Source: an uncultured virus (IMG/VR IMGVR_UViG_3300021404_000010) (Duplodnaviria; Heunggongvirae; Uroviricota; Caudoviricetes). From it: 64,000 nt of DNA. The stretch lies in IMG/VR virus record IMGVR_UViG_3300021404_000010, one strand, 5' to 3'. Position numbers and translations under genes: made by a program. Under the pieces are notes generated by a model. It saw only the letters and a program-made list of their open reading frames with translations, had not been told where the DNA came from and did not search any database. Shown piece after piece: positions 4,033-30,408 of this stretch (its first letter is position 1; every line of letters starts with the position of its first letter).

Positions 4033-5025
4033 CTAAATGCCGTCGCGATAGCCGATGGTCTCCGGATACACGACCTCGATCACACCCAGCCGGCCCCAAT
4101 AGGTCGTCAGGTTGTAGAGCGAGCGCCATTCCAGCGGCGTGCGCTGTAGGGCGGTCATCGGATATCTGACTTTGTCGTAGTCCTTGGTGTAGGCGATCAT
4201 GCGCTGCGTCGAAGCGGCGCCGCGTCCGTTCAGCCACTTCAACGGCTGGATGTTCAGCGGCCGCCCGTTCTGCGTGTTGCATAGCGAGTTTTCCTGCAAG
4301 AAGCGCAGCACCGAAATATTGCCGGCGGTCGCTACCTTCGCGCTGACCAGGATGCCGAACTGCACCGGAGGCACGCGAAGCTCGGTCGGCATCACCGCCC
4401 ACGCGCTCGCCGCCCACACCGAGGCAAGGAGTTCGTTGACCTGGGCGAGGATGGTATCGGGCGTGGTGGCGGTCCAGTTGCCGCCGGTGACGTTGCTCAC
4501 GTTCGTCACTGCGGGATGGTTGGTCAGTCCCGCCGTGCCGATCGTGCCATCGCCGGCATACACCAGTTGGTCCGTGTCCATCTGGTGCTTGAGTTGGATG
4601 ACCTTGAATTTTTGGTCATCGATGGGCCGACCAAGCTGCATCGCCGACGCCAGTTCGGGCATCGTGTACTGCAACTCCATGCCCCAGAGGTACAACGGCT
4701 GGGGCGTCTTACCGATGTCGAGTTGCGCGCCGGTGATGGCGTTGACGTTCTTGCCGATCCACGAGATGCCGGTCGGGTTGATTCCGCCCGCCGCCGCGAA
4801 GCTCGAGTTGGTGAACGATGAGAACTCGTCGCCAACGGTGACGTCTTCACGCAGGTCGATGTCGCGTCCCCACGTCACCGAGACCAGCGGCTCGTGGATG
4901 GTGTAGTCGAGGCGTTCGAGTTCACCGAGCAGGAATGCGCCCGCGCTGTCGCGGGTGATCCCGTCATAGGTGAACATGGCCGGGCCGCCGTTATGGCCGA
5001 GGCCGGCGAACATGCCGTCAGGCAT
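4033..5025 (-). CDS. Major capsid protein (DUF2184 family)
   Basis: AFLLGELERLD.TIHEPL..VTWGRDI; DQLVYAGD; C-terminal VYPETIGYRDGI. Confidence 0.92.
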   Translation of the reverse strand: MPDGMFAGLGHNGGPAMFTYDGITRDSAGAFLLGELERLDYTIHEPLVSVTWGRDIDLREDVTVGDEFSSFTNSSFAAAGGINPTGISWIGKNVNAITGAQLDIGKTPQPLYLWGMELQYTMPELASAMQLGRPIDDQKFKVIQLKHQMDTDQLVYAGDGTIGTAGLTNHPAVTNVSNVTGGNWTATTPDTILAQVNELLASVWAASAWAVMPTELRVPPVQFGILVSAKVATAGNISVLRFLQENSLCNTQNGRPLNIQPLKWLNGRGAASTQRMIAYTKDYDKVRYPMTALQRTPLEWRSLYNLTTYWGRLGVIEVVYPETIGYRDGI

Positions 5026-6149: not shown

Positions 6150-7094
6150 CTAAGCCCTCCCGTTCTGCTTGGCCCAGAAGTCCTTGTTGGCCTTGTTGAT
6201 GCCAGCGAGGCGCTGGGCCTGCGCGGCGCGATAGGCGCCCGGACCGGGCTGGCCGGCCGTGCCGAAATTCGGCGATGGCACGTTCGTCGCGTTGTTGATC
6301 TCGCGCATCCTGTCCGACGCATCGAGGAACAGCATCCGCACCGCATCGCACGACATCGCTTTGACGTGGTCCGCCGTGTAGCGGCCCATCGCCTGCTTGC
6401 CCTTCTCGCTGGCGGCGGCCTTGGTCAGCGCGTTGCGCCGCAGCGAGCAGATGCGCGTGCCGGCGACGGTCATGCGGTTCTGCTCGCCCGGAGCGCCGTC
6501 GAGCACGCCGATGCCGATGCCGGGCGCCAGCACCTCGGCGCGGGCCTTGGTGTCACGCACCAGCGCCAGCATCGCCTGGTTGACGCGCGCGCCGAACGCC
6601 GCATCGCCCATCTGCGATTTGCCGGTCTTCAACGCCGGGTCGGCTTCCATCAGGTCGGGCTCGGCGCTGGGCGGTGCGCTCGCTGTCTGCGCGCCCGTTT
6701 CGCCTTCGGCGTCGGTGGTCTCGTCGCCCTTCTTGTCGTCGTCGTCGCCCTTGTCGTCGCCCTTGTCGTCGTCGTCGCCCTCGGCGTCCCCGGTGCGGGC
6801 CTTCATCACCGCATCGAGCACCTTGGTGATCTTGGCATCGAGCGCCTTGACGGTGTCCTCGATCTTCTTGAACCGCTCCTCGTCCTTGTCGCCGTCGGCG
6901 TCGCCGGTGCCGTTCTCGCCGCTCTTGTGCTCGATATGCACATGGACATTGCTGGCGTGCTTGCCCTCGTCGCCGTCGGGCTCGCCGTCGGCGGGCGGGT
7001 CTTCCTCGGCGGCGTCGGCGATCGCGGCGACCGATGCCTTATCCCGCGCGAAGAACCCCTGGTAGATGTAGTCGCGCAGCGTACGCTTGCTCAT
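6150..7094 (-). CDS. Capsid scaffolding protein (normally the C-terminal half of the DUF2213 protein)
   Basis: AGGAGG RBS; acidic linkers, HVHIEH, coiled coil, ARAEVLAPGI, C-terminal INKANKDFWAK. Confidence 0.8.
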   Translation of the reverse strand: MSKRTLRDYIYQGFFARDKASVAAIADAAEEDPPADGEPDGDEGKHASNVHVHIEHKSGENGTGDADGDKDEERFKKIEDTVKALDAKITKVLDAVMKARTGDAEGDDDDKGDDKGDDDDKKGDETTDAEGETGAQTASAPPSAEPDLMEADPALKTGKSQMGDAAFGARVNQAMLALVRDTKARAEVLAPGIGIGVLDGAPGEQNRMTVAGTRICSLRRNALTKAAASEKGKQAMGRYTADHVKAMSCDAVRMLFLDASDRMREINNATNVPSPNFGTAGQPGPGAYRAAQAQRLAGINKANKDFWAKQNGRA

Positions 7095-7132
7095 GGTGAA
7101 CCTCCTATCCCTGCAGAGTTGGCAACCGCACG

Positions 7133-7354
7133 TCACCTGGGCTTGCGCCGCGTGCGGGCGGCGTCCTCCGTCGTCTCCGGATAATCGATGTCCTTGAGAT
7201 CCTCGGGCTCCGGGTAAAAGGTGAACGGCTCGGTGCCGAGGTATTCGGCCTCACCGTCCCAGATCACCTCGTCGCCGATGCAATAGATGCCGGGACAGTC
7301 CCACCTGTTGGGCTCCTGCTCGGCAGCCGGATCGGTCTTGCTGCTTTCGCTCAT
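7133..7354 (-). CDS. Small acidic protein coupled to the ADP-ribosyltransferase fusion gene
   Basis: ATGA overlap with the 1004-aa gene; rich in Asp, Glu and aromatic residues. Confidence 0.65.
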   Translation of the reverse strand: MSESSKTDPAAEQEPNRWDCPGIYCIGDEVIWDGEAEYLGTEPFTFYPEPEDLKDIDYPETTEDAARTRRKPR

Positions 7355-10300
7355 CGCACCATCGCCTTGATGTGGGTTTTGCCGCCGGCCTCCCAGATTT
7401 CGTAAATCTCGGTCTGCTGGCCATGATCCAGCATCACCTCGTTCTCACCGTGACCGGCGAGGCCGGCGATGCCGAGCATCCTCGTTCCTTTCGGAACGGT
7501 GAAGTGGATCCAGGTGTTCTTGTTGGCGCCGATCGCTGCCGGCCGATTTGCCATGCTGGCCGAGGTGTAGCCCTGGCGCGGCAGCAGGCACGGCGGCGGC
7601 CCCTTGGCGAGTTGCGCACGCAATTTGGCGATGACGGCGGCGGAGACCTGCTCACCGCGGCGAACAATCACGTCCTCGGTGGTCACCGACGCATCGCGCA
7701 GGAACTGCTCGTCCATCAGGTCGAGCTTCTTCTGAATGTGCTTCGGCGTGCCCACAGTCCCGGTCTCGCGCAGCGCACCGTTCATCGACTGGTAGCCGCT
7801 GCCGGCGTAGTCGTGAAACGCCTGCTTGGTCTCCGATGTCACCGAGGAATGGCTCCAGAAGTCCGGCGTCAGCGATGGCGCGATCTTCATGGCCTCCGCG
7901 GTGTGGGAGCCGTTCGGTTGCTTGGCGCGATTCTCCACGGTGATGGCGTGCTTGACGCGCGTGGTCTGCTGCGCCCTGACGATGTTGGTGGCGGGCATCC
8001 CCGCCTCATGGTGGACATTGGGGATCGTCGTTGCTGCCGGCTTGGGGGCGGGCTTCGGTGGCGCCGGCGTCGGCTCGGTCGGCTTGGTGGCCGGGTTCTC
8101 TTCGATGCCGTACGCCTCGGCGATCTTGCTGGTCCACTGCTTGGCGAATTTGGCGGTGAAGCCCTCGGGGAAGTTCTGGACCGTCTCGTTCGCCTTGATG
8201 GCGGCGATCTTCTGCGCCGGTGTCGTCGCCGGGTCGGTCGCGAGCTTGTAGATCGCCATCTGCGGTTTTGATTCGGGATGCGGGATCGGCCCGTCGACCT
8301 TGACCGGCTTCGCCTCGGCGCCGTGCTGCGCACCCAGCGCCGCCACCAGCGAGTTGCCGTATGTCTCGGATGCGCTGCTGATCTCGCCGCCCGATTTGAG
8401 GTGCTCGATGTAATTCGCCAGCGCCTCGGCTTTCACCAGCGGCGGCGAGTTGCCCGACGCCACCTTGAGCATGTTCTGCTGGTAGCCGTTCTCCGGGTTC
8501 GTCGGCTGCGGCAGTCCTTCGCCGGTTGCCGGGGCTGTGGCGGGCGCTGGCGCCGGTGTCGGCGTGGCGGCGGGCGTTGGCGCCTTGGCCGGCTTCTTCG
8601 CCGACAGCGAGCCCACGGCGCCCGGGTGCATAAGGCTCGCCGCGGCCAGGTGCTTCAGCACCTTGTTGGCGTAGGAGATGTTGTTCGGGTTATGCGCCGC
8701 GCCCGAGGCGATCTCCTTGATCTTCGGCACGAGCTCGTGCGGCTCGCCGAGATGCGACGCGACCGCGGCCTTGATCTTCTCGCCGAAGGATTTGACGTAG
8801 GTCGGCGGCTCCGGCAGCGAGGTTTTCCAGCCATGATGGCCGCCGGTTGAAAACCCGCCCGACGGCAGGCCGCTGCTGATCGATGTGCCCCCGCCTGGGC
8901 TTGTCGCGAACTGCCCGGCGTTGCCCGGCTGGCCGCGCGGGTGGTCGCCCTCGACCCATGCGTCGCGGTAGTCGATGTCCTCGTCCGCCGGGTAGTCGAT
9001 GTCGGCGAACCAGTCGGCGTCATGCGTCGATGCTGCCGCGCCGCCGCGTTTGATGACGTCCTGCTTGCGCGCGATCAGCTTCTCGGCCAGCGCGGTCTTC
9101 TGCTCCGCCGTCCCGGGCCCGTGCTCGTCGACCAGCTTGCGGATCGTCGCGTCGGATACCTTCGCCACCCGCGAGGCGGATGACCGCAGTTGCTCCGGCG
9201 ACATCTCGCCGAACACGGTGTGCGCCTGGTGGTTCGACGGATGGCGCAGCGTGTCCCACTCGCCGACCTTGTTGCCGAACGCCTCGCCCTTCGGTCCGCC
9301 CTGCGCGCGGTAGAGCAGCGAGCCGCCGACATCGAGCGTGTGCATCTCGCCGCCGATGCGGCCCTGGTTGTCGTATTCGAGGCCGACCGCATCCCAGTTC
9401 GACAGCCACGCATGCGTCGCGAAATGCTGCTGCGCGGCGCGCCGGTCGTCCGGCTTCTTGCGGTCGATCGGCGTCACGCCCTTCCAGCGTGTCGCGGTGC
9501 CGAGCTTGCCGCCGCCGAGGTCGGCCGGGTGAACATGCAGCACCGGCGAGCCCGCCGCGCTGTAGAGCCGCGATGCGAGGATTTCGTTCTTCGCGTGGCT
9601 CTCGGATTTCGACTGCTTGACGTAGAACTGCGCGCCGGTGCTGTCCTCGTAGCGGCCGCCGGGATTGCTCCCAAGCTGGCCGCCAACCTTCTTCATCGAG
9701 GCGACCTGCACCGCCGCTCCGCCGCCAGCCGTCTCGGAAAACTTCCCCTCGTCGTCGCGCGGGTGCTCTGACTCGACGAACTCTCCGACATCGGCGAAGG
9801 CCGCGATGGCGCCCTCGTAGTCGTAGACCGGCGCACCATCGAGGATGGTGCAGCGCCGGCCGCATCGGCCCTCGTCCACCAAGGCAACGTGGTTGCAGAA
9901 GATGTTCTTCTGGATCCCGAGGCCGGGCGCGGTCTGATCGTACGCGGCGTTGTAGCCGACGCTGATGGCCCGCTTGCCTCGCTTGCGCACCGCATCGATG
10001 CCGCGTCGCGTGGTGAAGATCAGATCGGCGAGCAGCAGATCGTTGTTCGGCGCCTCGCCGCGGCGCGGATTCGACACGTAGCCGATGGAGAGATCAGACC
10101 AGTTGTCCGGCCCGACGCCCTCCGCCGGGTGGTCATCGACCACTGGCTTGCCGATGAAGCTGCGCACGCTCTCGTCGGCGAACACCTCATGCTCGGGGCG
10201 CTCGACATGCACGCGCCCGCCGGCGTCGCCTTGCAGCGGTGGAACCTCGCCTTCCCAGTAGATCTGCGTGCCGGTGCGGGCGATCGGCACGTCACGGCAA

Positions 10301-10365
10301 ATCAGATAGCCTTCGGCGGTCTCGTCCATGTGGGGCGAGAGCTTGCTGACGGTGTGCCACTCCAT
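7351..10365 (-). CDS. DUF2213 prohead protease fused to kinase-like and ADP-ribosyltransferase domains
   Basis: N-terminus GYLICRDVPIARTG, KPVVDDHP, ISVGY, NHVALVDEGRCG; middle GSNPGG..YVK..NE..NWD..DN..LDVGGSL; C-terminus YQSMNGALR, VRRG, GYTSAS, ENEVML. Confidence 0.88.
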   Translation of the reverse strand: MEWHTVSKLSPHMDETAEGYLICRDVPIARTGTQIYWEGEVPPLQGDAGGRVHVERPEHEVFADESVRSFIGKPVVDDHPAEGVGPDNWSDLSIGYVSNPRRGEAPNNDLLLADLIFTTRRGIDAVRKRGKRAISVGYNAAYDQTAPGLGIQKNIFCNHVALVDEGRCGRRCTILDGAPVYDYEGAIAAFADVGEFVESEHPRDDEGKFSETAGGGAAVQVASMKKVGGQLGSNPGGRYEDSTGAQFYVKQSKSESHAKNEILASRLYSAAGSPVLHVHPADLGGGKLGTATRWKGVTPIDRKKPDDRRAAQQHFATHAWLSNWDAVGLEYDNQGRIGGEMHTLDVGGSLLYRAQGGPKGEAFGNKVGEWDTLRHPSNHQAHTVFGEMSPEQLRSSASRVAKVSDATIRKLVDEHGPGTAEQKTALAEKLIARKQDVIKRGGAAASTHDADWFADIDYPADEDIDYRDAWVEGDHPRGQPGNAGQFATSPGGGTSISSGLPSGGFSTGGHHGWKTSLPEPPTYVKSFGEKIKAAVASHLGEPHELVPKIKEIASGAAHNPNNISYANKVLKHLAAASLMHPGAVGSLSAKKPAKAPTPAATPTPAPAPATAPATGEGLPQPTNPENGYQQNMLKVASGNSPPLVKAEALANYIEHLKSGGEISSASETYGNSLVAALGAQHGAEAKPVKVDGPIPHPESKPQMAIYKLATDPATTPAQKIAAIKANETVQNFPEGFTAKFAKQWTSKIAEAYGIEENPATKPTEPTPAPPKPAPKPAATTIPNVHHEAGMPATNIVRAQQTTRVKHAITVENRAKQPNGSHTAEAMKIAPSLTPDFWSHSSVTSETKQAFHDYAGSGYQSMNGALRETGTVGTPKHIQKKLDLMDEQFLRDASVTTEDVIVRRGEQVSAAVIAKLRAQLAKGPPPCLLPRQGYTSASMANRPAAIGANKNTWIHFTVPKGTRMLGIAGLAGHGENEVMLDHGQQTEIYEIWEAGGKTHIKAMVR

Positions 10366-10374
10366 CGGGCAGGC

Positions 10375-10923
10375 TCAGTGCACCGTCGGGCCCGGCTGGC
10401 GCCACGTCACACCGGCCGCGATGTTGGCGACCTCCTCGGCCTCGTCGGGATCGAGCCAGTCGTGCTCGAATTCCGCGATCTCGCGATCCAGCGCGATGAT
10501 GAGGTTCGGATTGCACATCCCCGGCAGTTGCTGCCGCCAGCCCGCAACGCGCTTGGCGAACGCCTCCAACTCGCGCTCTTCGCGTTGCTGCTTGGCTGCC
10601 GCGCGCCGTTCCCGTTCCCCCGACGCCGCGCGCTCTTCCTGCGCAATCCTGGCGTTGAGTTGCTTTTCAAACTTCGCCCAGGCGTCCCAGCGGCTTTGAT
10701 GCTCCCACTGCTCGCTCACCGCATTCAGGAATCGCTGCCCGACCGACGCCGGCACGGGAGGCGGCCGGGAGGTCGGCCCGGTGTAGACGCCGAACAGGTG
10801 CGCCTGGGTGTACCAGTGCTGCGCGACCTCATCGCTGACCTGATGGCGCCCAACGCCGATGCTCAGCTTCTCGCCGCTGTCGAGCGAGAGGATGAATGCC
10901 TTGGCGACGTGGATGGTCGGCAT
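10375..10923 (-). CDS. STY1053-like domain plus helical extension
   Basis: MPTIHVAKAFILSL...GRHQVSDEVAQHWYTQAHL resembles 1466..1894. Confidence 0.65.
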   Translation of the reverse strand: MPTIHVAKAFILSLDSGEKLSIGVGRHQVSDEVAQHWYTQAHLFGVYTGPTSRPPPVPASVGQRFLNAVSEQWEHQSRWDAWAKFEKQLNARIAQEERAASGERERRAAAKQQREERELEAFAKRVAGWRQQLPGMCNPNLIIALDREIAEFEHDWLDPDEAEEVANIAAGVTWRQPGPTVH

Positions 10924-10925
10924 GG

Positions 10926-11150
10926 CTACCGGACCAACCGCCCGATTGATTCCCAGAACGTGCGCGATGCATCGTCCAGCGACAGGTCGGGCGGAATCTG
11001 CACCTCGCCGGTCAGCAGGTTGATGCGCAGGCCGCACGCGAACTGCAACCACTGCGGCGGCGGCGGATTGTTGAAGCCGATCGAACCGGAGGTTCGCATT
11101 GTGAGATCGGCGACCGTCAGCTTACCCTCGGTTTCCATGAGCACCCCCAT
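10926..11150 (-). CDS. Hypothetical protein
   Basis: INLLTGEVQIPPDLSLDDASRTFWE; abuts the next gene. Confidence 0.55.
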   Translation of the reverse strand: MGVLMETEGKLTVADLTMRTSGSIGFNNPPPPQWLQFACGLRINLLTGEVQIPPDLSLDDASRTFWESIGRLVR

Positions 11151-11573: not shown

Positions 11574-12473
11574 TCACGGCAGGATCGGCAACGCGATGCA
11601 CCTGCAATTGAATATCTGCCCCGGATGGCTGTGGTGGTCGGGCGGATCGGATAGCGGCGGCGCGTCCCATCGCTGCACCGAGCCCTCGAGCTTGCGGTGC
11701 GACGGTCGCACCTTCCAATCGCCGGCGGTTTTCCATTGGTAGCTCTCGGCGCCGACATGCTGCGCGCGTGCCTGCATCAGCACCGATGCGGTGCGCGCGG
11801 TCTCCGTCCTGGCAATCAGCGTCGCACGGGTCTTTAGCCACGCCTCGGTCTGCCGCGGGTGCATTTCCGCCAGCGCCGCTTCGATCTCGGCGGTGCGCTC
11901 CGGATAGCGCGCCGAGGTCATCAAGGCCTCGACCGAGCGTTCATGCACGCGCTGCGCCGCATCGATCGGCAGCGAGGTGATCAGGCCCACCTGTTCCTCG
12001 AGCAGCCCTCGCATCACCTCGCCGGTCGGCGCGGTGCGCAACTCGAACCGCAGCGCCGCCGACATGCCCTGCGTGTACTTCTCCCAGGCGGTGCGGTCGC
12101 GGCGGTTGACCTCGGCGATCATCCGCCCGGCCGTCGCCCGCGCCCACGGCGTGATCGCCGTCGAGTAATGCGCGAGGGCTTCGCGGATGCGCGCGATCGC
12201 CGCCGCCGAGAACGGCGTTTGCGGATCGCTGGGCGTAAACGCCTCGATGATGCGCGCCACATGGCTCGCAACCTGACGCAGTTTTGCGCCGTACGAGGTC
12301 TGGGCATTGCGTGCCCGCGCGAAGGCGGCTTCGGCTTTCTCTTCCTCGCGCTTCGCCCGCTCGTAGGCGCGCCGCTGGGCGCCGCTGCCGGTCCACGGCG
12401 CGTCATGCGTCGTCGGAGCCACCGCCGTCGCCTTCGCCTCCCTCGGCCTTCGGTGGCGCCGGTACGCCCGCAC
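11574..12473 (-). CDS. Head morphogenesis protein (MuF/SPP1 gp7 family)
   Basis: RATLIARTETAR, YQWKTAGDWKVRPSH, HPGQIFNCRC; start uncertain. Confidence 0.9.
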   Translation of the reverse strand: MRAYRRHRRPREAKATAVAPTTHDAPWTGSGAQRRAYERAKREEEKAEAAFARARNAQTSYGAKLRQVASHVARIIEAFTPSDPQTPFSAAAIARIREALAHYSTAITPWARATAGRMIAEVNRRDRTAWEKYTQGMSAALRFELRTAPTGEVMRGLLEEQVGLITSLPIDAAQRVHERSVEALMTSARYPERTAEIEAALAEMHPRQTEAWLKTRATLIARTETARTASVLMQARAQHVGAESYQWKTAGDWKVRPSHRKLEGSVQRWDAPPLSDPPDHHSHPGQIFNCRCIALPILP

Positions 12474-17568: not shown

Positions 17569-17675
17569 TCGAGTTGACTTGGCAGGGCGCTGCCATCCTC
17601 GGTGTCATCGCGGCCGTCGCCTGGATCGCGATCTTATGGACCGAGCGCAAGCCGCCGACCCTACGCGGACCGTAG
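17565..17675 (+). CDS. Single-TM microprotein
   Basis: ATGA-coupled; MIELTWQGAAILGVIAAVAWIAILW. Confidence 0.5.
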   Translation: MIELTWQGAAILGVIAAVAWIAILWTERKPPTLRGP

Positions 17676-18950
17676 CAGCGGTTCCCGTTCGGCGAGGATG
17701 GCGGCGTAGGGCTTCGGCTCTGCGCCGCTTTCGCTTTGCAGCATCGCTGCCTCGCCGGTGAAGTTCTGCCAGCGTTGGATGGCCACATCGACGTAGGCCG
17801 GGTTGACCTCCAGCGCGATACAGCAGCGCCCGGTCATCTCGGCGGCGATGATCGTCGTGCCGGAGCCGACGAAGGGATCGTAAACCGCCTGCCCGACGCT
17901 GCTGTTGTTCTCGATCGGGCGCTTCATGCATTCGACCGGCTTCTGCGTCGAGTGCGCCGTGTGCCCGCCGTCCTCCCGCTTGTAGTAGCCGACCTGGGTG
18001 TTGATGTCCCAGACCGTGTCCTGCGAGCGGTCGCCGGCCCAATGTCCGGTCTTGCCCTTGCGGACCGCGTACCAACACGGCTCGTGCCGCCAGTGGTAGT
18101 CGCCGCGCGAGATCATGAAATGCTGCTTCGCCCAGATGATCTGCGAGCGGAGCAGGAGCCCGGCGGCCTCGAGGCTCGCCGCGACCACGCTGGCCTTGAG
18201 ACCGCTGTGCCAGACGTAGGCAACATCGCCGGGGAATAGCATCCAGGCTTCCCGCCAGTCGGCGCGGGTATCGTTATCCACGCGGCCCGGCGCGACGTAG
18301 GCGCCGGTCGTCCAGAGGCCGGGCGTGCGGGTCCGCCATTCCGGATCGTAGTCGACGCCGTAGGGCGGATCGGTGACCAGCAGATGCGGCACGACGCCGC
18401 CCAGGGCGCGCGTGACGGTCGCCGGGTCGGTGCAGTCGCCACACGCCAGGACGTGGCGCCCGAGCCGCCACAGGTCGCCCAGGCGGGCGGCGGGAGCGGC
18501 GGGAGCGTCGGGCGTCTCGTCGGGATCGGTCTGCCCGGCGTTGGGCGCGAGCAGCTTGTCGATCTCGTCGGTGCCGAAGCCGGTGAGCAGCAGATCGAAA
18601 TCCGCCGCGGCCAGTTCCTCCAACTCGGCGCGCAGCATGCCGTCGTCCCATCCGGCGGAGAGCGCCATGCGGTTGTCGGTCAGCACGTAAGCGCGCCGCT
18701 GGATCGGCGTGAGATGCGCAAGCTCGATGGTCGGCACCTCGGTCATGCCGAGCTTGCGGGCGGCGAGCAGCCGGCCGTGCCCGGCGATCATGCCGCGGGC
18801 GCTGTCGATCAGGAGCGGATTGGTGAAGCCGAATTCGCGGATGGAGGCGGCGAGGTCGGCTATCTGGGCGTCGGAGTGGGTGCGCGCATTGCGCGCGTAG
18901 GGGATTAGCTCAGCGACCGGCCGGTAGACGATCTCCAGCCGTGGTTGCAT
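17661..18950 (-). CDS. ParB-like N-terminal domain fused to an N6A/N4C DNA methyltransferase
   Basis: LIPYARNARTHS..IAGHGRLLAA; TDPPY; HSTQKPVE; DPFVGSGTT. Confidence 0.92.
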   Translation of the reverse strand: MQPRLEIVYRPVAELIPYARNARTHSDAQIADLAASIREFGFTNPLLIDSARGMIAGHGRLLAARKLGMTEVPTIELAHLTPIQRRAYVLTDNRMALSAGWDDGMLRAELEELAAADFDLLLTGFGTDEIDKLLAPNAGQTDPDETPDAPAAPAARLGDLWRLGRHVLACGDCTDPATVTRALGGVVPHLLVTDPPYGVDYDPEWRTRTPGLWTTGAYVAPGRVDNDTRADWREAWMLFPGDVAYVWHSGLKASVVAASLEAAGLLLRSQIIWAKQHFMISRGDYHWRHEPCWYAVRKGKTGHWAGDRSQDTVWDINTQVGYYKREDGGHTAHSTQKPVECMKRPIENNSSVGQAVYDPFVGSGTTIIAAEMTGRCCIALEVNPAYVDVAIQRWQNFTGEAAMLQSESGAEPKPYAAILAEREPLLRSA

Positions 18951-19161
18951 GGGCAGGCTCCCGGTCACGGTTGGGTGGCGGGTTTTCCACGAGGGTCACG
19001 ATGCCGCGGAGCCAGTGCGCCACATCGGCGGTGATCGGCGCGGTGCCCTGCGCCATCTTGCGCACGCCGCGCTCGTTGCGGCCGAGCCGACGGGCGAGTT
19101 CGCCCTGCGACCAGCCGAGCCGATCGAGGATCGACCGAAGTTCATCGGTATCCATGTCCAT
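18910..19161 (-). CDS. XRE-type HTH protein
   Basis: ELRSILDRLGWSQGELARRLGRNERGVRKMAQG. Confidence 0.75.
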   Translation of the reverse strand: MDMDTDELRSILDRLGWSQGELARRLGRNERGVRKMAQGTAPITADVAHWLRGIVTLVENPPPNRDREPAHATTAGDRLPAGR

Positions 19162-19225: not shown

Positions 19226-20197
19226 TCAGGCCACCAGTTCGAGTAGCTGGTCGCGGAACCGGGTCTTGAGCCGATCGCCGGTGCCCATCAGGGCGTTGGC
19301 GAGGCGGTGCGAGTCGGATTTCGCGCGGCCGCCGTGATCGACCACTTCGGTCAGCCCGTTCAGCAGGCCCCAGGCGGTGCCGGCGAAGCCGGGCGCATCG
19401 GCGCCGGTAGCGAGGCCGCGGAAGAGGTCCATCACCCGCACGAAGGTCTTGCTGTCCTTCTCGGCCGCTTCCTCACCCAGCACCTTCTTGACCTGCTCGC
19501 GCGCCCGATCATCGGTCAGCCGATGGTCGGCGAGCTTACGCATGCTGGTCATGAAGGCTTCGAAGGTGACGGGCGCGACGCCGAGCCGGCGCTTGACCTC
19601 GTCGGCATCCCACTCAGAGCGATGGGCGATCTTGATCTGCCCGGCGCTATCCTTGCTGTCGGAAAGGCTCAATGTGTTTTGACACACAACGCGGACCGAC
19701 GTGAAGCGCGCCTCGGTCGCCCGCAGGCCATCGGCGCTGCTGGTCAGCAGCAGATACGCCTTGATGCGGTCGCGATTGTCGATGATGCAGCTTTCGCCGA
19801 TCTTGGCGAGCGCCCAGAAGCGACGGCCGCCGAACAGCGTGCCGGCGGTATCGAGCGTCAGGCCGACGGTCTGCACCAGGTCGGCGAAGAACTCGATGAC
19901 CTCGGCCGGCTGCAGGATGCAGTAGTCGCCGGAGACGACGCCGAGCGGGGCGATCGTATCGGAGCGGTGCAGCACGTAGCGATCGTCGAAGGTGTGCAGC
20001 GCGCCGTTCGCCTCGAACTGCACCGGCGAGGGTTCCACCGTCCACTCCATGCCGGCGGCCTGAACCCATTCCTCGATGGAGGCGTTGGCGGCGACCTGCT
20101 GCGGCTGGGTCTCGGCGAAGTGCCAAGGGAAATCGGTGCCGGCGCGGAACGCCATCTCGACCTTTCCATCAGCGCGGATTGTAAGCTCGTGAGCCAT
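19226..20197 (-). CDS. DUF932 family phage/plasmid protein
   Basis: PWH, AGMEWTV, TAGTLFGGRRFWALA, TSVRVVCQNTL, GTAWGLLNGLTE. Confidence 0.88.
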   Translation of the reverse strand: MAHELTIRADGKVEMAFRAGTDFPWHFAETQPQQVAANASIEEWVQAAGMEWTVEPSPVQFEANGALHTFDDRYVLHRSDTIAPLGVVSGDYCILQPAEVIEFFADLVQTVGLTLDTAGTLFGGRRFWALAKIGESCIIDNRDRIKAYLLLTSSADGLRATEARFTSVRVVCQNTLSLSDSKDSAGQIKIAHRSEWDADEVKRRLGVAPVTFEAFMTSMRKLADHRLTDDRAREQVKKVLGEEAAEKDSKTFVRVMDLFRGLATGADAPGFAGTAWGLLNGLTEVVDHGGRAKSDSHRLANALMGTGDRLKTRFRDQLLELVA

Positions 20198-29597: not shown

Positions 29598-30408
29598 GTG
29601 CCGCCTCCCCGCCGCCGTTCACCTTGGGCTTCGGGGCGTGCCACGGTCCGGCTCTCAGCCAACTGGCCGGATAGGGCGTCCATTTCGGGTCGCCGAGGAA
29701 GCGGCTGTCCTCCTGCTTGGCCTCGAACAACGCATCCAGCAGATCGTCGGGGTCTCCGCCGATCGCCTTCAGGGCGGCGACGTAGGCTTTGTAAGCGTCT
29801 CCCTTGTCCAGCTTCTTCGGGTAGTCCTTCCAGAACTCATCAAAGCGATCGTCCTCTCGCACCCGCGCGCGCCGCGCGCCTCCCCCGCTTGCGGGGGGTG
29901 GGGGGGGAGACTCTGGGGGATTCTTAAGGGGATTCTTACTAAGGGGATTCTGCGAATCTGATTCGTAGTCTGGAGCCGTTTGCTGCGAATCTGATTCGTA
30001 GGCGCTGCGAATCTGATTCGTAGGCTCGGGGTCGCTGCGAATCTGATTCGTAGTCTCCGGGTCGGCGGTGCGAATCTGATTCGTAGGCTCGGGCTCTTGC
30101 TGCGAATCTGATTCGTAGATCGGGGATTGTGGACGCAGCAGCTTGAACACGTAATGCGTGCCCGCGCCCGCGGTGATCGATACCAGATCGCTCGGTATGT
30201 TCTTCAGCGCAAACTGGATCGTGCGACGGTTCAGCCCGGTGTAATCCGCCAGGATGGCGATGCAGCTTCTTCCGCTGAATTCGAGCGTGTGCCGGTTCAC
30301 TAGCTCGGCGATGTTGGTGAACACCCACCGAGCGGTCGCCGGCAGCTTGCGCTCGTGGGCCATCTTCATCGCCCAGGCGCAGTTCGGGCAGGCGGGAGGA
30401 ACGCTCAT
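29587..30408 (-). CDS. Replication initiator (lambda O-like architecture)
   Basis: N-terminal wHTH-like LADYTGLNRRTIQFALK; internal iterons; C-terminal FDEFWKDYPKKLDKGDAYKAY...YPASWL. Confidence 0.85.
   Translation of the reverse strand: MSVPPACPNCAWAMKMAHERKLPATARWVFTNIAELVNRHTLEFSGRSCIAILADYTGLNRRTIQFALKNIPSDLVSITAGAGTHYVFKLLRPQSPIYESDSQQEPEPTNQIRTADPETTNQIRSDPEPTNQIRSAYESDSQQTAPDYESDSQNPLSKNPLKNPPESPPPPPASGGGARRARVREDDRFDEFWKDYPKKLDKGDAYKAYVAALKAIGGDPDDLLDALFEAKQEDSRFLGDPKWTPYPASWLRAGPWHAPKPKVNGGGEAAHAH
29909..30118. repeat. Putative replication origin: six TGCGAATCTGATTCGTAG iterons plus three GGGGATTCT repeats
   Basis: Identical 18-mers start at 29951, 29984, 30006, 30036, 30069 and 30101; palindromic core CGAATC-T-GATTCG. 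Confidence 0.88.

Follow-up and report, generated by a model that had tools for sequence, protein, structure and literature searches.

Why should the gene for a phage head-maturation protease run on into what look like two further enzymes? The question is raised by P0001, a gene on the minus strand (7351..10365) of a 64,000-nucleotide stretch of DNA, hereafter the window, from an uncultured virus of the Caudoviricetes (IMG/VR IMGVR_UViG_3300021404_000010). An earlier note, made from the sequence alone, had described P0001 as a prohead protease turned into a cargo polyprotein, in which a DUF2213 domain, a kinase-like domain, three repeats and an ADP-ribosyltransferase (ART) follow one another and the protease carries the two enzymes into the procapsid and releases them for injection. 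Our best explanation, to which we give a probability of roughly 0.6 as a whole, is that P0001 is a polyvalent effector of the phage type anchored on the phage's own head-maturation protease. Its parts deserve different degrees of confidence: the identities of the domains are close to certain, activity of both enzymes is predicted with good confidence, packaging and ejection of the cargo seem likely by comparison with other phages, and the cutting of P0001 into separate enzymes is rather doubtful. Of the earlier interpretation, then, the four domain assignments stand and packaging is retained on comparative grounds, while the proteolytic release implied by the word polyprotein is less likely than not.

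The domains of P0001

The gene is real: according to the ORF list and the translation, it is one open reading frame (ORF) of 1004 amino acids (aa) with an ATG start, and the plus-strand reading over the same interval is riddled with stops. No obvious Shine-Dalgarno sequence precedes it. All motifs that had been quoted from it were found, namely HPRDDEGKF (aa 201-209), GSNPGG (232-237), YVK (248-250), NE (260-261), NWD (323-325), DN (332-333), LDVGG (344-348), HPRGQPGNAGQF (475-486), VRRG (901-904), YTSAS (933-937) and ENE (974-976).

The N-terminal domain (aa 1-178; 9832..10365, minus strand) is DUF2213 as claimed, matching Pfam PF09979 over aa 15-176 with an E value of 1.7e-42 and 145.7 bits against a gathering cut-off of 22 (profile positions 3-166 of 167), and PHROG families labelled 'head maturation protease' match it as well. 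Its AlphaFold2 (AF2) model, built on 54 sequences and with a pLDDT of 89, shares its fold with T4 gp21 and the herpesvirus assemblins, to which the domain is only 7-18% identical, with no match at the sequence level. Assemblins possess a Ser-His-His triad with a spacing similar to that of His79, Ser135 and His159 in P0001. Among 125 aligned domains, Ser135 and His159 are found in all and His79 in 123, the other two rows being gaps; in the 34 rows that come from proteins longer than 535 aa, the counts are 34, 34 and 32, respectively. We read this domain as a genuine prohead serine protease of the assemblin/T4 gp21 fold, with predicted activity.

In its usual relatives, the DUF2213 protease and an acidic scaffold are encoded by one gene, and in this phage the scaffold half has become a gene of its own, a point that the earlier note had missed. 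The halves of phrog_1961 and of Burkholderia phage Magia gp05 match P0001 and a downstream ORF (6150-7136, minus strand) separately. Of the 417 positions of the phrog_1961 profile, positions 1-176 match P0001 and positions 190-416 match the downstream ORF. Magia gp05, a 432-aa 'head maturation protease' in the same operon place as P0001, is 44% identical over its aa 1-177 to P0001 aa 1-179 (E 6e-45), and its aa 314-432 are 28% identical to the downstream ORF (E 8e-12). The DUF2213 family profile also matches Pa193 gp24 (PDB 9B40) with an E value of 1.3e-20; the main text of PMC11456595 reports that this protein was detected in virions by LC-MS and that the homologous part, the C-terminal part of the scaffold, binds the capsid interior, describing gp24 solely as a scaffold and containing no word that begins with 'protease'. 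The scaffold-like ORF is very acidic, with low-complexity runs of D, E and K, and can be read as 328 aa from a GTG at 7136; an AGGAGG precedes the ATG at 7094, which is the likely start and gives a protein of 314 aa (6150..7094). Read-through or frameshifting that would join P0001 to this scaffold was considered and rejected, as the three ORFs lie in three different frames and a double shift is without support.

The middle domain (aa 220-445; 9031..9708, minus strand) belongs to no Pfam family: it gave no match in Pfam at E <= 10 (over aa 179-500, no kinase family) and none in NCBIfam at E <= 1, and by sequence the domain is no member of Pkinase, PI3_PI4_kinase, HipA_C or CotH. The region nonetheless has at least 4047 matches at E <= 1e-3, and 1097 at E <= 1e-30, among 1.84 billion representative proteins (clusters at 50% identity). 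Most of the 150 matches listed exceed 800 residues, the longest having 7004. Where listed matches to the kinase region come from cultured phages, the gene concerned bears the annotation 'ADP-ribosyltransferase' or 'hypothetical protein'. When the modelling check that the earlier note had suggested was run, AF2 gave a bilobal, atypical kinase fold (pLDDT 90.2, pTM 0.86). Foldseek placed CtkA, a kinase of Helicobacter pylori, first (E 8.8e-6), ahead of eukaryotic kinases, HipA and LepB. A literature search for a link between CtkA and phages returned nothing relevant. The conserved residues are aptly placed in the model: a Gly-rich loop precedes the first strand pair, Lys250 ends the next strand, Glu261 lies in the helix after it, Asp325 and Asn333 sit in the loop following helix 315-320, and Asp345-x-Gly-Gly comes after the next two strands. 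In 234 aligned domains, the catalytic-type residues are kept in 228-233 overall (K250 in 228, E261 in 230, D325 in 228, N333 in 231 and D345 in 229). The close matches in a viral structure library are named 'uncharacterized', 'portal protein', 'ADP-ribosyltransferase' or 'Nudix', and the more distant ones are phage proteins resembling PI3K/PI4K; a neighbour cluster in the Atlas, with PF00454 on 16% of its members, is a lead only. A wider alignment that included columns beyond the domain returned only ART matches among solved structures. By its modelled fold and its active-site pattern, we take the middle domain to be a putative kinase outside every named sequence family, the substrate of which could be a protein, a lipid or a small molecule.

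Three repeats of about 60 aa, helical in the impression of the earlier note, follow at aa 526-581 (8623..8790), 619-688 (8302..8511) and 693-762 (8080..8289), all on the minus strand and placed by profile matches. Pairwise, their similarity is not significant (Smith-Waterman against 500 shuffles, z 0.5, 0.4 and 2.2), and it is iterated profiles that link them, in agreement with the number given before. The local profile of the first repeat finds aa 526-581 (1e-23), 648-684 (1.2e-5) and 699-754 (3.9e-14), and that of the third finds aa 529-576 (1e-5), 623-688 (2.8e-14) and 693-762 (1e-22); the profiles were built on relatives, and since sister repeats enter once past 1e-3, these self-matches are partly circular. 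The relatives hold 2-10 copies, usually in the order kinase, repeats, ART, and a search of the Atlas with the repeat region gave no usable match. In the relatives P0002 (1099 aa) and P0003 (1091 aa), we observed an extra duplication of about 93 aa, comprising the linker and the first repeat, between the kinase domain and the second of two peptides with the motif HPR, which are described below.

The C-terminal domain (aa 791-1004; 7354..7995, minus strand) passes the cut-off of the Pfam ADPrib_exo_Tox family (PF03496), as expected from the ART assignment: within P0001, the match covers aa 840-1000 at E 1.3e-11 (44.7 bits against a cut-off of 23.4), and the segment alone gives E 2e-13. In an alignment to CDTa, the RR, SxS and ExE of P0001 fall on the toxin motifs. 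Arg903, Ser935, Ser937, Glu974 and Glu976 are invariant across six sequences down to 35% identity, and in 24 aligned rows the motif residues are retained in 22-24 (R903 in 24, S935 in 23, E974 in 23 and E976 in 24). The ExE motif is the pattern of Arg-specific ARTs.

The stop codon TGA of P0001 overlaps the ATG of a 73-aa acidic ORF, P0210 (7133..7354, minus strand), in the arrangement ATGA. Homologues of P0210 come after ART-ending ORFs in L001/L005, L002, L004, L008 and L016, which represent five distinct lineages. The carrier in L008 is a portal fused to the kinase domain and the ART; the small ORF comes after it, and a DUF2213 gene of the canonical kind lies downstream. Because a homologue also follows the ART on this portal carrier, the 73-aa ORF accompanies the ART and not the protease, and it is a candidate partner of the ART, be it an immunity protein, an inhibitor or a chaperone.

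Exchanged cargo and the HPR peptide

The same architecture occurs on separate viral contigs, with best-segment identities of 95% (L001), 85% (L002) and 76% (L004). Beyond these, the cargo is found on other carriers, which the earlier note had not seen, and the carrier with other cargo. Among 73 cargo-sharing proteins, many of them encoded on short contigs and possibly incomplete, the Pfam domains found were portal PF06381 in 14, MuF in 6 and DUF2213 in 10, together with ART PF03496 in 39, NUDIX in 20 and topoisomerase IB in 5. A survey of what is fused to DUF2213, which had been proposed as a check, was run: of the 29 closest domains listed (at least 52% identity), 21 are accompanied by a further Pfam domain as cargo, be it an ART, topoisomerase IB, NUDIX or a zeta toxin, and the same holds for only 2 of the 91 listed that are less closely related. 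The order is reversed, with cargo ahead of DUF2213, in L026, L048 and L096; of the cargo-before-protease arrangement, Iyer et al. (2017; PMC5512222, main text) write 'always at the C termini'.

The closest approach to experimental evidence for a location in the particle is provided by Yersinia phage fHe-Yen8-01, whose gp129 (2146 aa) combines a kinase domain 41% identical to that of P0001 with an ART and is described in a GenBank note as a 'phage particle associated protein'; this annotation is the sole near-experimental support, and a literature search found no publication on the phage. In Pseudomonas phage Jeremy, a related kinase-plus-ART gene is located outside the head operon, among hypothetical genes and adjoining a nucleotide phosphatase and a restriction endonuclease.

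Two further arrangements were observed among the relatives. In L007 (6001-9512), an ORF of 737 aa with its stop at 8214 combines DUF2213 and NUDIX with a single repeat and the kinase domain, and a second ORF, which runs from 8157 in a different frame and overlaps the first, has '...ADIDY...', an HPR peptide and more repeats, so that either a frameshift or a true split just ahead of the junction peptide is at hand. L025 (5549-7234), L033 and L071 have a divergent DUF2213 (32.6 bits) followed by a junction peptide at aa ~180 and an LPD3 domain, and are a second lineage laid out with the protease first and the cargo after it.

The kinase module of P0001 is flanked by two copies of a junction peptide. 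The first, F-V-E-S-E-HPR-DDE-G-K-F (aa 196-209; 9739..9780, minus strand), comes directly after the protease domain; the second, W-V-E-G-D-HPR-GQPGNA-G-Q-F (aa 470-486; 8908..8958, minus strand), is a long form followed by a Gly/Ser-rich linker. From 210 distinct instances, the consensus is an acidic or Ala-rich stretch, then [FW]-x-E-x-x-H-P-R-x3 (or x6-8)-G-x-F and a Gly-rich run, with Glu at -3 in 206 and Phe or Trp at -5 in 190. In a set of 208 proteins, HPR..G.[FW] occurs 183 times, far above the 0.2 occurrences that shuffled sequences would give, and at least one copy is present in 121 of them. P0004, which has no kinase module, carries a single HPR motif as opposed to the two of P0001. 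The strings of the peptide yielded nothing in a literature search and were not found in the main texts of PMC5512222 and PMC5576092; the supplementary alignments of the former might show them. Within the window, the only other match to the regular expression HPR..G.[FW] (29860-29901, plus strand, in a 173-aa stop-to-stop frame) has no upstream Glu and is probably due to chance in GC-rich sequence.

A motif scan of viral contigs gave at least 78 motif-bearing ORFs on at least 73 distinct contigs. Among the 78 ORFs listed, the peptide stands after a portal domain of the same ORF (PF06381, PF05136 or PF06074) in 27, in the first 60 residues in 28, in the same ORF as DUF2213 in 5 and elsewhere in 18. 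Its places include the N-terminus of free-standing cargo and the joint between cargo and a head anchor, the latter being a portal of three families, a MuF neighbour or the DUF2213 protease. Behind it lie a zeta toxin, LPD3, ART-PolyVal, topoisomerase IB, a glutamine deamidase, a 2H ligase-like domain or an SNF2 helicase. These placements point to a peptide that serves head cargo in general, as a leader or at a junction, and is no mark of the DUF2213 protease. As a separate observation, a 1354-aa ORF in L074 (9965-14026, plus strand) has six copies of the peptide, about 150-270 aa apart, and a borderline PI3_PI4_kinase match (28.6 bits against a cut-off of 27.1).

Proposed packaging and the competing explanations

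The setting of P0001 is the head operon of a contractile-tailed phage, with the MuF gene on one side and the scaffold and capsid genes on the other. On the minus strand, the order is large terminase, portal (PF06381; 12403-13932), MuF-like head protein (11574-12473), an STY1053-like ORF, P0001, the 73-aa ORF, the 328-aa scaffold-like ORF, a 141-aa ORF, an XM1 gp53-like protein and the major capsid protein (PF09950, E 5e-76; 4033..5025). The portal and MuF assignments come from profile matches. The sheath, tape measure, baseplate and fibre genes are located at 46-64 kb of the window, the G+C content of which is 66%. Several other features of the surroundings were recorded. The 225-aa ORF between the MuF and protease genes (10375-11052, minus strand) holds an STY1053-family phage domain (NF047914, 59.6 bits), and in L068 the gene in the same position encodes a 175-aa protein with an HPR leader. 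A fusion of ParB-N with an N6-N4 DNA methylase (17661-18968, minus strand; phrog_498, E 3.5e-135) adjoins a DUF932 protein (19226-20197, minus strand). The nearest genome, G001 (7 Mb in 570 contigs, 86% complete), has 65% of the window's sampled words in common with it. DUF2213 gave no match in G001 or in the virus record G002; in G001, the related prophage may be incomplete or the DUF2213 stretch missing.

The argument for packaging in the interior of the head is one of comparison, with cargo of the same kind fused to portal and MuF proteins and with the particle-associated Yersinia homologue. Directly behind the protease domain stands a cargo cassette, in which the kinase-like domain between its two junction peptides is followed by the three repeats, the ART and then the small partner ORF; the scaffold half has become a gene of its own with a strong ribosome-binding site. 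Beyond the domain assignments, we infer the following scenario. The protease-cargo protein and the scaffold would co-assemble into the procapsid, where P0001 would be retained in the head, either intact or cleaved at its flexible linkers, and from where it would exit with the DNA via the contractile tail. In the new cell, ahead of any phage gene expression, the kinase-like domain would phosphorylate one target and the ExE-type ART would ADP-ribosylate one, probably on Arg, for the purpose of host takeover or counter-defence. In the producing cell, the 73-aa ORF, which is translationally coupled to P0001, probably binds the ART.

A number of observations weigh against this scenario. Support for the protease fold is weak, the gp21/assemblin families ranking at the top of the Foldseek results with E values of no better than 0.027-0.05. 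The kinase-like domain has its fold in common with the atypical kinases CtkA, CotH, PI4KII-alpha and HipA, but this is a match of fold only, at 9-16% identity, and a profile of the domain alone matched no kinase among PDB sequences, giving one spurious surface-layer protein. That PHROGs revealed no second head protease in the 53 ORFs of the window that were scanned speaks for the scenario, with the reservation that a further 6 kb or so of the phage, beyond the window, went unsearched. With the capsid-binding part of the scaffold detached from the protease, the route by which P0001 enters the procapsid is left unexplained, and the idea that the repeats mimic the scaffold had to be dropped, as their profiles miss the scaffold ORF (iE 0.9-1). 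Finally, the HPR peptide hardly behaves like a site at which the protease would set its cargo free. It occurs in 3 of 90 DUF2213 proteins of at most 535 aa versus 16 of 22 longer ones; DUF2213 is near it in 18 of the 73 loci listed, and of the 24 loci with a length of 18 kb or more, no more than 9 have DUF2213 within 10 kb; and the peptide is also found in phages with lambda- and Mu-type portals (PF05136, PF06074). Since the peptide is not specific to DUF2213 and canonical scaffold-bearing proteins mostly lack it, it is a poor candidate for the native site of the protease, and within the window it is confined to P0001. It is on this point that the release by proteolysis proposed in the earlier note is weakened. 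The portal of phage Mu, gpH, which is C-terminally processed, was tried as a model for the motif, and neither Mu gpH nor gpF has it.

A bolder possibility, which we offer tentatively, is that the HPR peptide with its Gly-rich tail is a portable signal of head cargo, comparable in role to the capsid-targeting sequence of T4 and able to load almost any enzyme. At the joint between anchor and cargo, the peptide may then act as a docking site, a cutting site or both, P0001 may be a load of two signals and two enzymes on a protease, and the kinase family may be a major class of injected phage enzymes.

Is the ART, alternatively, a bacterial toxin paired with the 73-aa ORF as its immunity protein, serving competition or exclusion by harming cells that lack the immunity gene? 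Such a protein would be delivered just as in our preferred explanation, with a different purpose. The small, conserved ORF, coupled through its ATGA overlap, follows the ART in the five lineages mentioned and on two carrier types, the C-terminal effector is highly variable among close relatives, MuF toxins provide a precedent in temperate phages (PMC5576092), and a repressor-like gene and a RecT gene are present in the window. However, no small ORF follows the ART of L006, which is 37% identical, the kinase, NUDIX and topoisomerase cargo comes without visible immunity genes, and no integrase was seen among the window ORFs scanned; we consider a toxin of this kind unlikely, though the most serious of the alternatives.

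Less probable again is an action in the producing cell with no injection at all, whereby the protease would liberate the kinase and the ART in the cytoplasm at a late stage of infection, or the enzymes would modify head proteins during assembly. The late-operon position of P0001 would suit this, as would the loss of the attached scaffold, the normal route of the protease into the procapsid, and the kinase-plus-ART gene of phage Jeremy with its place outside the head operon. Nevertheless, portal proteins bear such cargo fused to their C-terminus, as do MuF proteins in fusions of their own, and both are fixed components of the head, the Yersinia homologue is annotated as particle-associated, and late expression would be ill-timed for takeover enzymes unless they were stored for the next cell. 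That P0001 might be an assembly chimera or a decaying fusion with non-functional middle and C-terminal parts, for which nothing speaks except its unusual length and the polyvalent gene of L007 broken into two overlapping ORFs, is very improbable and already contradicted by the conservation of the catalytic-type residues in kinase and ART rows, besides the independent contigs of the same architecture and AF2 models at pLDDT 89-90.

P0001 among polyvalent proteins

The preferred explanation, a polyvalent effector anchored on the maturation protease, places P0001 within a published theme that the earlier note had overlooked. In the phage-type polyvalent proteins of Iyer et al. (PMC5512222, main text), several effector enzymes are likewise joined in one polypeptide, the genes lie beside head genes, and packaging and delivery together with the DNA are predicted; the same text covers ARTs and kinases as well as NUDIX neighbours and fusions to portal or MuF. 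P0001 has at least two effector domains, a virion-gene context and domains shuffled with similar proteins. It differs in that the protease is N-terminal, the scaffold has been shed and the protein heads a clade with swapped cargo. Furthermore, the kinase clade of the same text has no C-terminal subdomain and is found mainly in Verrucomicrobia, Chlamydia and Bacteroidetes, whereas the kinase of P0001 keeps a helical C-lobe. The term 'DUF2213' is absent from that main text by word search, the supplementary files being outside its scope.

Other known systems resemble P0001 in part. The canonical DUF2213 proteins Magia gp05 and Pa193 gp24 have the same gene order of portal, MuF, protease gene and capsid but, at 432-478 aa, keep the scaffold attached and have no cargo, unlike P0001. 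T4 Alt is a packaged ART that is injected and is processed by gp21, its entry into the head depending on the prohead protease system; it has a short N-terminal targeting peptide and no fusion to the protease. The 'Alt-like' phrog_802 matches only the ART core of P0001 (75 residues, aa 838-912; E 6.8e-6, positions 413-485 of 674), and a full-length similarity to the Alt family that would include the targeting peptide was not found. With VIP2, CDTa, iota Ia and the C3-type ARTs, P0001 has in common the PF03496 match and the aligned R, S-x-S and E-x-E; unlike the binary toxins, its ART is a single domain without an adaptor domain or B component and stands in a phage head operon. In the MuF polymorphic toxins of temperate phages (PMC5576092), a head-protein anchor is likewise joined to a C-terminal toxin that varies, with a small gene following downstream; their anchor is MuF where that of P0001 is the protease.

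What is new, accordingly, is the arrangement of a known theme: the protease leads, the scaffold has been separated from it and the cassette brings its own small partner gene. Besides the known portal and MuF, the maturation protease would be a third anchor of head cargo, a loading hook for enzymes delivered before gene expression. Two by-products stand out as most useful, one being how large the unannotated kinase family is and the other the peptide found as a junction or leader. If the kinase family, for which neither Pfam nor NCBIfam has a model, were named, the annotation of many phage genomes would change and new chemistry of host takeover or anti-defence would come into view. The peptide, if it is a true targeting or processing signal, would offer exact sites for testing the old idea that polyvalent proteins are cleaved in the head, and it could serve to load chosen proteins into phage particles.

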